From Methanothrix sp. (GTDB lineage Archaea > Halobacteriota > Methanosarcinia > Methanotrichales > Methanotrichaceae): a DNA stretch of 64,000 nucleotides. Below, piece by piece: positions 1,463 through 3,768 of the stretch. The position numbers and the translations under genes were made by a program. Where the stretch lies: positions 1,952,001 to 2,016,000 of the forward strand of contig OY821645.1 of NCBI GenBank assembly GCA_963682135.1. Direction: 5' to 3'. A model generated the notes under the pieces. It was not told the origin of the DNA and made no database searches. It saw only the letters and a program-made list of their open reading frames with translations. Each line of letters opens with the position of its first letter. Position 1 is the first letter of the stretch.

Positions 1463-3355
1463 CTAGCTCTTCCACCTGGCTAGGGCTTTACGGACTGTCT
1501 CGGTGTGGAGGCTCTCGATTTCTTCGAAGATGGGAAGGGCGGACTGAGCCAGATCTATTGCGTCATTCTGTCTGCCAAATTCTTTCAAATAGAGGCTGAT
1601 ATTGAACATATGGATGCCTTCGCCCTGGCGATCCCCGATCTCACGGGAAATCTTGAGCTCCTGATCGTAGTAATCGATGGCCCTCTTGGGCTCGCCCAGA
1701 TCTGAGTAAGCATTGCCAAGGTTGCCCAGACCGGTGCCTTCGCCCCGGCGATCCCCGATCTCACGGAAAATCTTTAGCGCCTGCTCGTAGTACTCGATTG
1801 CCTTCCTGGGCTCGCCCAGATCTGAGTAGGCATTGCCAAGGTTGCCCAGACCGGTGCCTTCGCCCTGGCGATCCCCGATCTCACGGGAAATCTTTAGCGC
1901 CTGCTCGTAGTACTCGATTGCCTTCTTGGGCTCGCCCAGATGTGAGTAGGCATTGCCAAGGTTGCCCAGGTGGTTGCCTTCTATCACACGATCTCTTGAT
2001 TGCCTGGATGCTTGTAATCCTGCATTCAGCCATGGAATCTTCTCTCGAGGAGAGAGGCGCAGATCCAAAACATAAGCACCCGCATTGGGATACGATTTGC
2101 AGAGTTCAACGGCAGCAGGAAAATTGCCATCCATATTCGTTTCAGCCCAGGACTGCCCAGCCATGATGTTAGCTTTCTCTTGATCAAATATCTTGAGCCC
2201 AGCGAGAAAGTTCTCTTTTCCCTGCTTAAATATTTGGTTTGTCACGGATAGCACTTTATAATAGTATTCGGCATGGCGTTGCGCAGCCACAGCAGTGACT
2301 TTAGAATCCAGACGCGAACGTGCAAAATCACGTGCCAGATCATGCAGCTTGTAGCGTCCCCCTTCGCCTGTGGCAGAAGCCAGAACGTCCATCAGGCTCC
2401 ACTTCACTAGCTCTCCCAGTGCATCTTCTGTGGCATCGCATTCCATCTCCCAGACTGCCGCCGCACCGAACAGATCGAAGTCGGCGGGAAAGACAGAGAG
2501 CAAAGACCACAGCTTTTGCATCTCCGGTGCAAGAAGCTGGTAGCTCTGATTAAAGGACGCTTCTACCTTATCCAGACGCACCCGAGATTCCGCCAGCCGT
2601 TTGATATAACCGGCAACGCCCATGTTCGGCTTCTCCCTCAAGACAGATGCAGCATTTCGCAGGGCAATGGGCAGGCAGCCGCACAGATCGGCCAGCTCCT
2701 CAGCGTGCTCGCCGATGCGCTCGCAGATCGACAGGAGGAACTTCTTGGCGTCCTCCAGAGGCAGGACGTTCAGGTCCAGCTCTTCTAATCCCGCCAGGGC
2801 AAACTTATTTCGTGAGGTGATGAGCAGAGCAGAGCCAGCAGGCGGCAGGAGCGGCTCCACCTGCGCCCGGTCTGCTGCGTTGTCGAGCAAGATCAGAGCT
2901 TTCTTTCTGAAGAGCACAGAGCGATAGAGGCCGCTCAGGCCATTCATATCTGATGGAAGCCTGATATCGAGTCCCAGATAAGAACGGATGATGTGGGCCA
3001 TCGCATCTTCAGGCATGAGTGGATTCTTGCTCGTTCCCTGCATCTCCAAGTAGAGCCTGCCATTTGGAAAACGATCCTTAAGCCGATCTGCCAAGACCAG
3101 TGCCAGAGCAGTCTTGCCCACGCCGCCCATTCCCCGCAGGCCGGTGATGGTCGCCCCTCGATCAAATCGATTGAGAAGATCATGAATATCATCATCACGT
3201 CCCTTAAAATCGGCAGGTGGTTGAGGAATCTGCTGCGGCAGAATTGGCGGTTCTCGCGATTCGGGACCTAGCACGACCTTCTCGGCTTCGAAGATGATGG
3301 TCTGATCTCCATGCACGGTTTGACCGTGAAAGTCTGAGCCGGGATCGTTCGTCAT
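1463..3355 (-). CDS. NLR-like STAND NTPase (NB-ARC) with C-terminal TPR repeats and a short N-terminal putative amyloid motif
   Basis: FKGR motif, Walker A GMGGVGKT, Walker B LILLDNA, sensor LITSR, GCLPIAL, LHDL (MHD) motif, then GNLGNAYSDLGEPxKAIEYYEQAL TPRs. Confidence 0.92.
   Translation of the reverse strand: MTNDPGSDFHGQTVHGDQTIIFEAEKVVLGPESREPPILPQQIPQPPADFKGRDDDIHDLLNRFDRGATITGLRGMGGVGKTALALVLADRLKDRFPNGRLYLEMQGTSKNPLMPEDAMAHIIRSYLGLDIRLPSDMNGLSGLYRSVLFRKKALILLDNAADRAQVEPLLPPAGSALLITSRNKFALAGLEELDLNVLPLEDAKKFLLSICERIGEHAEELADLCGCLPIALRNAASVLREKPNMGVAGYIKRLAESRVRLDKVEASFNQSYQLLAPEMQKLWSLLSVFPADFDLFGAAAVWEMECDATEDALGELVKWSLMDVLASATGEGGRYKLHDLARDFARSRLDSKVTAVAAQRHAEYYYKVLSVTNQIFKQGKENFLAGLKIFDQEKANIMAGQSWAETNMDGNFPAAVELCKSYPNAGAYVLDLRLSPREKIPWLNAGLQASRQSRDRVIEGNHLGNLGNAYSHLGEPKKAIEYYEQALKISREIGDRQGEGTGLGNLGNAYSDLGEPRKAIEYYEQALKIFREIGDRRGEGTGLGNLGNAYSDLGEPKRAIDYYDQELKISREIGDRQGEGIHMFNISLYLKEFGRQNDAIDLAQSALPIFEEIESLHTETVRKALARWKS
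1610..1980 (-). repeat. Near-identical 120-bp tandem repeats encoding 40-aa TPR units
   Basis: TGCCAAGGTTGCCCAG recurs at ~1714, 1834 and 1954. GCCTTCGCCCyGGCGATCCCCGATCTCACGG recurs at ~1616, 1736 and 1856. Confidence 0.9.
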
Positions 3356-3768
3356 TATTTTTTATCTCGGATGCCATCACCAATGTTGACCGTACCGTGA
3401 ACTGTGTCGATTACCGTTTGATTTCCGTGCACTGTTTGCCCGCTGAAGTTGTAGATTTTACAGGCGCACTCATTTTGAGCTTCATTGACCAGTCTGCTTA
3501 TTTCCTCTGCAAAATCTGGATCGGATAGCATCTTTTCCGCCAGGATTTCTCTGAGCATGCCAATACGCTCCCCGGATTCGGGCATATCCTTTGCGCGGGC
3601 CAAAGTCTGCTCTGCATAAGAGTCTCCCTTAAATTTGCCCGAGACTGCCCGCAGTAGCTCGGCGGCTTTTCCGGCTAGCTTATCTCCTGCAGTTTTCGAG
3701 AATGCGTCTGCCGCTTTGGCCACAAAAGGTGCAGCTATCAATGCAACGCTGGCAAAATCCATTAGCAT
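3355..3768 (-). CDS. Bell/HeLL-like helical effector with C-terminal putative amyloid (BASS/RHIM-like) motif
   Basis: Hydrophobic N-terminal helix (FASVALIAAPFVAKAADAFSKTAG), helical core ending DPDFAEEISRLV, and a G/N/Q/T/V-rich tail NFSGQTVHGNQTVIDTVHGTVNIG. Its stop overlaps the NLR start (TAATG). Confidence 0.75.
   Translation of the reverse strand: MLMDFASVALIAAPFVAKAADAFSKTAGDKLAGKAAELLRAVSGKFKGDSYAEQTLARAKDMPESGERIGMLREILAEKMLSDPDFAEEISRLVNEAQNECACKIYNFSGQTVHGNQTVIDTVHGTVNIGDGIRDKK

Follow-up and report, generated by a model that had tools for sequence, protein, structure and literature searches.

A probable Bell/NLR amyloid-signalling gene pair at an adk-linked site of a Methanothrix-type archaeon

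We analysed a stretch of 64,000 nucleotides from Methanothrix sp. (assembly GCA_963682135.1, contig OY821645.1, positions 1,952,001 to 2,016,000; hereafter the window), in which two overlapping genes encode a small protein with a predicted helical domain, here called the Bell protein, and an NLR-like protein with NB-ARC and TPR regions. A short motif is common to the C-terminus of the first and the N-terminus of the second. The pair is probably a two-gene Bell/NLR amyloid-signalling module, with amyloid templating and cell death proposed by analogy with a published archaeal peptide, bacterial BASS pairs, fungal HET-S/NWD2 and Bab/Agp of E. coli. The module is already described in kind, with both the concept and a Methanothrix example in print, and is confirmatory rather than surprising; what it adds to Bell/NLR amyloid signalling is a further archaeal locus and motif subtype. 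By comparison with its homologues, the window motif is a minority subtype of the Methanothrix F-D-Q-R-G-Q...Q-T-N-I family.

The gene pair and its shared motif

The two genes are co-directional and overlap by one base. Their features, in window positions, are as follows.

3355..3768, minus strand: gene of the Bell-like effector candidate, 137 amino acids (aa), stop codon included, from the list of open reading frames (ORFs)
3460..3768, minus strand: predicted globular helical domain, Bell residues 1-103, from the AlphaFold2 (AF2) model
3358..3459, minus strand: Bell C-terminal tail, residues 104-137, bearing the shared motif; delimited by the predicted local distance difference test (pLDDT) and composition
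3409-3447, minus strand: Bell-side core FSGQTVHGNQTVI, followed by DTVHGTVNIG
3353..3357, minus strand: stop/start overlap TAATG, in which TAA and ATG have base 3355 in common
1463..3355, minus strand: NLR-like STAND gene, 630 aa, with N-terminal motif, proline-rich linker, NB-ARC, winged helix and TPR
3266..3355, minus strand: NLR N-terminal head, residues 1-30, containing the shared motif
3293-3331, minus strand: NLR-side core FHGQTVHGDQTII, followed by FEAEKVVLG
2582..3178, minus strand: NB-ARC domain (Pfam), residues 60-258, with Walker A GMGGVGKT at residues 75-82 and a Walker B-like LILLDN ending at N159
1615..1969, minus strand: three tandem 120-bp (40-aa) TPR units, 94% base identity

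An earlier sequence-only reading of this stretch had proposed an effector C-terminus/NLR N-terminus layout, and this is borne out: the motif is common to both ends, the genes overlap, the ORFs and the TAATG junction are as described there, and the coordinates of both peptides are exact (Bell N107-G130 at 3379-3450, NLR D8-I21 at 3293-3334). The Bell protein ends in ...NFSGQTVHGNQTVIDTVHGTVNIG (longer stretches, NFSGQTVHGNQTVIDTVHGTVNIGDGIRDKK and ...KIYNFSGQTVHGNQTVIDTVHGTVNIGDGIRDKK) and the NLR begins ...DFHGQTVHGDQTII (fuller forms, MTNDPGSDFHGQTVHGDQTII and MTNDPGSDFHGQTVHGDQTIIFEAEKVVLG). The window motif can be written F-S/H-G-Q-T-V-H-G-N/D-Q-T-V/I-I, and the Bell tail holds two TVHG repeats plus VNIG, as had been pointed out. 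The cores are identical at 10 of 13 residues and 28 of 39 bases, and the codon-level comparison agrees with the reported synonymous differences, since six of the ten identical residues use different codons (e.g. GGG CAA ACA GTG CAC against GGT CAA ACC GTG CAT). Given this base identity and the different codons, the motif pair is not a recent DNA copy.

Local alignment of the last 40 aa of the Bell protein with the first 40 aa of the NLR gives a score of 58, which none of 20000 shuffles reached (best shuffle, 48). When the N-termini of all 5318 ORFs of at least 100 aa in the 3.04 Mb genome (3,043,341 bases) were ranked by the same score, the adjacent NLR came first, with the runner-up at 40. 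Both results indicate that the similarity of tail and head is not due to chance. Scanned in all six frames, the genome contains GQT[VI]HG only three times: in the Bell tail, in the NLR head and in one paralogous Bell gene.

The order of Walker A/B, winged helix and TPR in the 630-aa protein is that of an NLR-like STAND protein (NB-ARC plus TPR). Pfam assigns NB-ARC (PF00931) to residues 60-258 with 27.2 bits (cut-off 23.5), an APAF-1-like winged-helix domain is found at E 8.9e-5, and TPR_12 at E 1.2e-31 (109 bits), with TPR matches over residues 462-575. No Pfam domain is annotated ahead of residue 50, where the motif gives way to the proline-rich linker, in line with the earlier claim that this protein has no N-terminal effector domain. 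Across an alignment of 13 NLRs, GMGGVGKT and the LLDN box are invariant, including G75, G77, G78, G80, K81 and D158, and so are motif residues Q12 and Q18. The 94% identity of the TPR units suggests that units of the presumed sensor were recently duplicated, or its repeats shuffled; TPR repeats of fungal and bacterial NLRs are described as highly conserved internally (Dyrka et al. 2020, bioRxiv 10.1101/2020.01.06.895854). A jackhmmer search with the NB-ARC region of the window returned ten NB-ARC-like ORFs in this genome, of which three carry a short N-terminal motif (the window NLR and two at a paralogous locus) and the others longer N-terminal regions.

For the Bell protein, AF2 with a 26-row alignment places helices at residues 5-17, 20-26, 29-46, 50-61, 66-82 and 84-102 (block pLDDT 73-93) and gives pLDDT below 50 to residues 104-133, so that the protein is predicted to consist of a helical domain of about 100 aa and a disordered tail. 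The Bell criterion of Dyrka et al. (2020) comprises a helical globular domain of about 100 aa within 120-140 aa and a hydrophobic N-terminal helix, with the second or third residue acidic. In the window the protein has 137 aa with six helices over residues 5-102, and its most hydrophobic 15-residue segment is residues 2-16 (Kyte-Doolittle 1.95), within an N-terminal helix of about residues 2-17 that is also a highly conserved part of the protein. It begins MLMDFASVALIAAPFVAK, in which D is the fourth residue if translation starts at the first ATG and the second if it starts at the third codon, also ATG. A precomputed PF20701 (HetE-N) label on 8 of 120 listed homologues was not reproduced: hmmscan at E<=1 was negative in three of these and in the window Bell, and the best match in the genome (E 0.16) lies elsewhere than the Bell gene. 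The literature search for this family likewise turned up no relevant work.

A word-indexed search found 136 Bell homologues at E<=1e-3 among 176 candidates, and wherever the source names a taxon it is Methanothrix or Methanotrichaceae. The source organism of the window belongs to Methanotrichaceae, a filamentous lineage, in agreement with the suggestion of a probably filamentous archaeon. Their globular part is well conserved (consensus MDPxSLAAxAAPF.AKGAEAF...KFKGDSYAEQTLARA, with the N-terminal form M-D-P-x-S-L-A-A-x-A-A-P-F), and their tails fall into three types. Of 120 listed homologues, 62 have a long tail (FDQRGQTVHGxQTNIAGxVxGxVFSGTFSGPVN), 48 a short tail (FDQRGQNVGxQTNIGxVxGSVNIGTK) and 7 the window-type tail (NFSGQTV[HYQ]GNQTVI..VNIG; a count also expressed as homologue clusters), with 3 unclassified. 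G, N, Q, T, V and I are over-represented in the family tails, and L, K, E and A under-represented. In 106 tails, G makes up 17.5% against 7.1% of the globular parts, N 10.0 against 0.9%, Q 12.6 against 3.6%, L 0.9 against 10.0% and K 2.3 against 11.5%, with P barely lower (2.3 against 3.5%). This composition agrees with the bias reported for BASS motifs, in which G, N, Q, V and I are enriched and K, P and L depleted (Dyrka et al. 2020). From the window to its relative L002 (L numbers denote the compared loci), 3 of 28 tail residues but 23 of 103 residues of the globular part are changed, so the tail is the better conserved of the two.

A profile of the globular domain retrieved 1170 representatives at E<=1e-3 among 1.84 billion (299 at <=1e-10 and 12 at <=1e-30), most of them 130-150 aa long with tails that vary but are of the same kind. 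In the ESM Atlas, the closest clusters come from cyanobacteria, actinobacteria and acidobacteria (scores 0.92-0.94), which is a lead, not proof. Distant Bell-like proteins (26-28% identity) were also seen in the same archaeal family and in metagenomes (L044 191-490, minus strand; L045 1474-1773, minus strand; L086 497-922, plus strand). Their tails are quite different, e.g. ..EIIQKMKVGENIIGLE..GAKIKQIG and ..ASAERAIAAQNIQGSTIISGNGNVV, and in L086 ..SSGERSVAAG stands near the start of the downstream 746-aa protein.

Pairing, co-variation and further motif channels

The pairing was followed through 21 loci from genome records and through a search of 81 genomes of the family, in which 28 genomes (that of the window included) gave matches, as did 21 of the 63 high-quality genomes. 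A co-directional ORF of at least 150 aa starts between -90 and +200 nucleotides (nt) of the stop in 31 of 45 Bell ORFs. Some loci were counted from both sources; once these duplicates are removed, 22 distinct pairs remain, window included, with none dropped. In most relative pairs the spacing from stop to start is -53 to +12 nt. The 14 unpaired ORFs are accounted for by contig ends, degenerate copies, one fusion, NLRs further off and divergent Bell types. A further 37 metagenome loci contain 39 Bell ORFs, and for 26 of them a downstream ORF is listed; in 21 of the 26 the score against the tail is at least 40, up to 130 in L062, and in L063 and L064 the Bell ORF is followed by a hydrophobic protein that lacks the motif.

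Over the 22 pairs, the mean tail/head score is 60.3 with the own partner and 44.0 with non-partners, and 0 of 20000 permutations reach the own-partner mean, although this control ignores relatedness and its count is not a probability. The two motif copies co-evolve across many loci; conservation of the paired motif in orthologous loci, proposed earlier as a check, is accompanied by co-variation and extends to paralogous loci. Effector tails often carry a longer or repeated motif relative to the NLR head. Window-type pairs occur three times independently, in the window, in a group formed by L002 with L054, L055 and L056 (tail NNFSGQTVHGNQTVIDTVHGAVNIG, head DFQGQTVLGNQTII) and in L057 (tail FNFSGQTVYGNQTVI, head DFHGQTVHGNQTII), with heads of the form DF[HQ]GQTV[HL]G[DN]QTII. 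The 22 distinct genomic pairs, together with the further metagenomic ones, form a natural set of co-varying tails and heads that could be used to study the specificity of amyloid templating.

The same genome holds a second Bell locus (G000:C1:705270-711477, where G000 is the genome of the window; L023 2271-8478, minus strand). Its 377-aa protein combines a Bell domain, motif A (FDQRGQTVHGPQTNIAGGVQGAVFSGQF), motif B (DFRGSKGAVIRPSGSVSQHFGDVNI, resembling the BASS3 peptide) and a CHAT domain (E 2.5e-9), and two NB-ARC/TPR genes follow it, one beginning with motif B and the other with motif A. When the three tails and three heads of this genome are compared, the table is diagonal (58, 106 and 79 against 16-47 off the diagonal), and each tail scores best with its own NLR. 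By these alignments, the genome holds three cognate tail/head motif channels, the window pair and two more. As far as our searches show, the two further channels are not found in the literature searched, supplements aside.

Fused forms present the same parts as one chain or together with other death-type effectors (CHAT, PNP_UDP). One-chain Bell-motif-NB-ARC-TPR proteins were seen in L041 (1495-3399, plus strand) and P0213; other fusions in relatives are Bell-motifs-HATPase_c_4-NB-ARC-TPR (P0141), Bell-motif-CHAT (P0203) and Bell-two motifs-PNP_UDP_1 (P0129).

Known systems, proposed function and alternatives

The Bell domain and ten BASS families were defined by Dyrka et al. (2020), whose Bell alignment includes AEB69174.1 of Methanothrix soehngenii; in that account archaeal Bell domains are restricted to Methanosarcinales, and two archaeal Bell/NLR pairs were missed by the BASS1-10 profiles. 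The synthetic peptide AEB69175.1(5-29), KSRFDQRGQKVIGQQINVAGDATLP, described as 'resembling BASS3', aggregated in an amyloid-like manner: its Fourier-transform infrared spectra were of the aggregate type and it stained with Congo red (Dyrka et al. 2021, PMC8086366). Of our loci, only L037, whose genome and that of the window belong to one genus, encodes this exact peptide, and does so once; it starts 9 nt after a Bell ORF with tail FDQRGQTVHGSQTNIAGNVNRPVLSGNFSGPVN. Identity to the window proteins is 50% for this Bell ORF (E 2e-38) and 48% for the NLR (E 2e-132); as the accession numbers are consecutive, we infer that the L037 Bell ORF is AEB69174.1. Since the published peptide is encoded beside a homologue of the window Bell, the motif family is in print and partly tested. 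The earlier suggestion of an undescribed family is accordingly not supported: Dyrka et al. (2020) report archaeal pairs outside BASS1-10, and PMC8086366 tested a peptide of the F-D-Q-R-G-Q...Q-x-N family.

The M. soehngenii pair (AEB69174.1/AEB69175.1) and the window have in common the genus-level lineage, the two-gene layout and the motif superfamily F-x-x-x-G-Q-x-V-x-G-x-Q-x-N/I. They differ in that the window has the minority subtype (NFSGQTVHGNQTVI..TVNIG against DFHGQTVHGDQTII), which lacks the D-Q-R and Q-T-N-I signature, and lies at another chromosomal site, adjoining adk; the tested peptide represents the NLR side only. Bacterial Bell/NLR pairs of BASS1-10 (Actinobacteria, Cyanobacteria) likewise have a Bell protein of 120-140 aa with a C-terminal motif of about 25 aa and an adjacent, collinear and often overlapping NB-ARC/TPR gene with an N-terminal motif, in multicellular hosts. 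The archaeal pairs are unmatched by the BASS1-10 profiles, and the domain has no Pfam model; prion and fibril assays are reported for the bacterial motifs.

The RHIM core is (I/V)-Q-(I/V)-G, to which the V-N-I-G at the end of the window tail is close, and the motif D-F-R-D-A-K-G..V-V of the paralogous locus resembles the BASS3 peptide VDLRDAKGVQVG. However, neither Pfam RHIM nor Ses_B matches at E<=0.1, and the NLR side of the window has V-V-L-G, not a Q/N-containing tetrad. Fungal HET-S/NWD2 (and HELLP/PNT1) follow the same logic, in which a helical membrane-targeting effector has its C-terminal motif templated by a motif at the N-terminus of an NLR, and the repeated element on the effector side of the window (two TVHG) recalls the HET-S-like repeat. 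That system belongs to a different domain of life, and no sequence or detectable fold relation between it and the archaeal pair was found. The closest tested case for function is Bab/Agp (BASS11) of E. coli, an abortive-infection pair tested for antiphage cell death (bioRxiv 10.1101/2024.11.07.622273). It has a small helical effector with a hydrophobic first helix and a C-terminal amyloid motif, and a TPR sensor with an N-terminal motif; in that report, however, the sensor is TPR-GreA/B-C-PIN instead of NB-ARC, the Babybell domain is, at about 80 aa, shorter and the motif family is another one.

By analogy with these systems, the pair would act as a presumed cell-death switch. A trigger would be sensed by the TPR array, and oligomerisation of NB-ARC would gather the N-terminal motifs, which, once clustered, may take a cross-beta (beta-arch) fold. 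This fold could then template the Bell tail, freeing the N-terminal helix of the Bell protein to damage the membrane, with abortive infection or regulated cell death inside the filament as the conceivable outcome.

Several observations weigh against such a module. No Pfam or NCBIfam family matches the Bell protein, and the Pfam RHIM, Ses_B and HET-s models give no match at E<=0.1. Foldseek against the PDB returned no solved helical death domain (best E 0.61, PA28), which is a weak test, as Bell folds differ widely in topology (bioRxiv 10.1101/2024.11.07.622273); a PDB search with the family sequence profile gave a spurious match to a cytochrome c555 trimer and otherwise only E>0.05. With a best Foldseek E of about 0.6 and nothing real from the PDB sequence search, likeness to HeLo, MLKL or Bab finds no support. 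The Bell-like nature ascribed to the small protein is supported by the predicted helical domain of about 100 aa and by homology to the gene beside the M. soehngenii NLR, but not by any HeLo/MLKL four-helix likeness. Furthermore, only 5 of the 22 tails find their single best match in their own partner, and the NLR-side match is strong across 13 residues only, with a charged continuation (FEAEKVVLG) unlike the Bell side. The tested peptide belongs to another subtype and to an NLR only 48% identical. We know of no archaeon in which membrane attack by a Bell domain has been demonstrated. A complex prediction for NLR residues 1-45 and the Bell tail (95-137), supplied as alignments, scored 0.03 (mark 0.32) and speaks neither for nor against binding.

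The main rival is that the shared motif is a non-amyloid docking element, working by beta-strand addition or as a short homotypic adaptor, which recruits the small protein to the NLR or its oligomer without templating. Co-variation of tail and head would suit any specific pairwise contact, the strong match spans 13 residues only and is followed by charged residues on the NLR side, and the L041 fusion keeps a single motif to link Bell with NB-ARC, an arrangement with no obvious need for templating between chains. We nevertheless regard docking as rather unlikely, since the tail composition is like that of published amyloid signalling motifs, aggregates with cross-beta signatures were obtained from a homologous NLR-side peptide (PMC8086366) and effector tails often have a longer or repeated motif relative to the head, in the manner of HET-s-type pseudorepeats.

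Alternatively, the small protein could regulate the NLR as an inhibitor, chaperone or adaptor while another effector kills, for example the product of an aerolysin-like gene 211 bp downstream on the same strand. This proposal, which strikes us as improbable, draws on the missing fold match to known pore-forming helical domains and on the recurrence of an aerolysin-like gene after two other pairs at this site (L002 and L007). Against it, that gene is missing in 10 of 12 syntenic loci that keep Bell/NLR and has no copy of the motif, and no other part of the Bell domain is as hydrophobic as its N-terminal helix, which is also highly conserved, as is described for Bell, HeLo and Bab (bioRxiv 10.1101/2020.01.06.895854; bioRxiv 10.1101/2024.11.07.622273).

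It is very hard to see the motif as a functionless relic, whether a linker left by the splitting of an all-in-one Bell-NB-ARC gene or a product of gene conversion between neighbours. All-in-one forms do exist (L041, P0213), but between the window and L002 the globular domain has changed more than the tail, different codons encode shared residues, and both partners retain the motif over three subtypes and dozens of loci. Finally, chance resemblance of two low-complexity ends, both abundant in G, Q, T and V, is refuted by the shuffles, the first rank among 5318 N-termini, the permutations and the recurrence of pairing in genomic and metagenomic loci.

The adk-linked site and neighbouring genes

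An adenylate kinase gene (adk) lies upstream of Bell/NLR in 12 of 18 compared loci (L002, L003, L004, L005, L007, L010, L014, L016, L017, L018, L019 and L020), with 81-100% amino-acid identity. Wherever the full-length gene was matched, Adk is 86-100% identical; the 81% refers to L014, where the match covers 89 residues only. GlyRS (69-97% identity) and the downstream flank genes are likewise common to the adk-linked loci, and in L009 matches are limited to downstream flank genes. At this site the Bell domain is 54-61% identical (79% in L002) and the NB-ARC part 50-77%. In L004, for example, Adk is 100% and GlyRS 97% identical, while Bell is at 60%, NB-ARC at 51% and the motif is of the short type; in L016 the corresponding values are 99% for Adk, 96% for GlyRS and 59% for Bell. 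Judged from these identities, Bell and NLR diverge far faster than the flanking genes at the conserved adk site.

The motif type at the site also varies among close relatives (region ~30-6900 compared with L003, L004, L005, L007, L010 and L016-L020), with at least two distinct types, short and window, among its alleles and the third, long type at other loci. As far as our searches show, the fast-diverging site and the window subtype are not found in the literature searched, supplements aside (the archaeal pairs of Table S2 might list the subtype or an orthologue). Tentatively, and with more doubt than confidence, we suggest that the adk-linked site is a hypervariable self/non-self or antiviral locus of a filamentous archaeon, with deeply diverged Bell/NLR alleles in strains whose flanking genes are almost the same, that a single genome operates several non-cross-reacting amyloid channels side by side (here the three cognate pairs), and that motif divergence, that of the window subtype included, has been selected for orthogonality or escape. 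If so, the site would be an archaeal counterpart of the allelic diversity at fungal het/NLR loci. The three channels of one genome and the adk site, where Adk is 86-100% and Bell down to 54-61% identical, make orthogonality and diversification directly testable with peptides.

The window differs from most of its relatives at this site by the following insertions.

3849-4299, minus strand: HicA toxin/HicB antitoxin pair (PF07927, E 1.2e-16; PF15919, E 1.1e-15), directly upstream of Bell
4516-6063: metallophosphoesterase, inserted between adk and Bell
304-1251, minus strand: aerolysin/ETX-MTX2-fold protein, 315 aa, downstream of the NLR

Compared with most syntenic loci, in which Bell is the next gene after adk, HicA/HicB and the metallophosphoesterase (3849-6063) form an insertion; the 315-aa gene after the NLR is another when compared with most relatives. 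The 315-aa protein has no obvious signal peptide by eye. A K-I-Q-I-G near its N-terminus was considered as a third RHIM-like copy and dropped, as L007 has K-I-E-I-G instead and the stretch is part of a strand predicted within the folded domain. The protein scores 0.98 in the Atlas to ETX_MTX2 clusters, and its AF2 model (pLDDT 63.9) matches parasporin-2 (E 1.7e-11) and also epsilon toxin, Cry51 and aerolysin. Its homologues, 36-39% identical, are Bacteroidota proteins named 'follicular epithelium yolk protein'.

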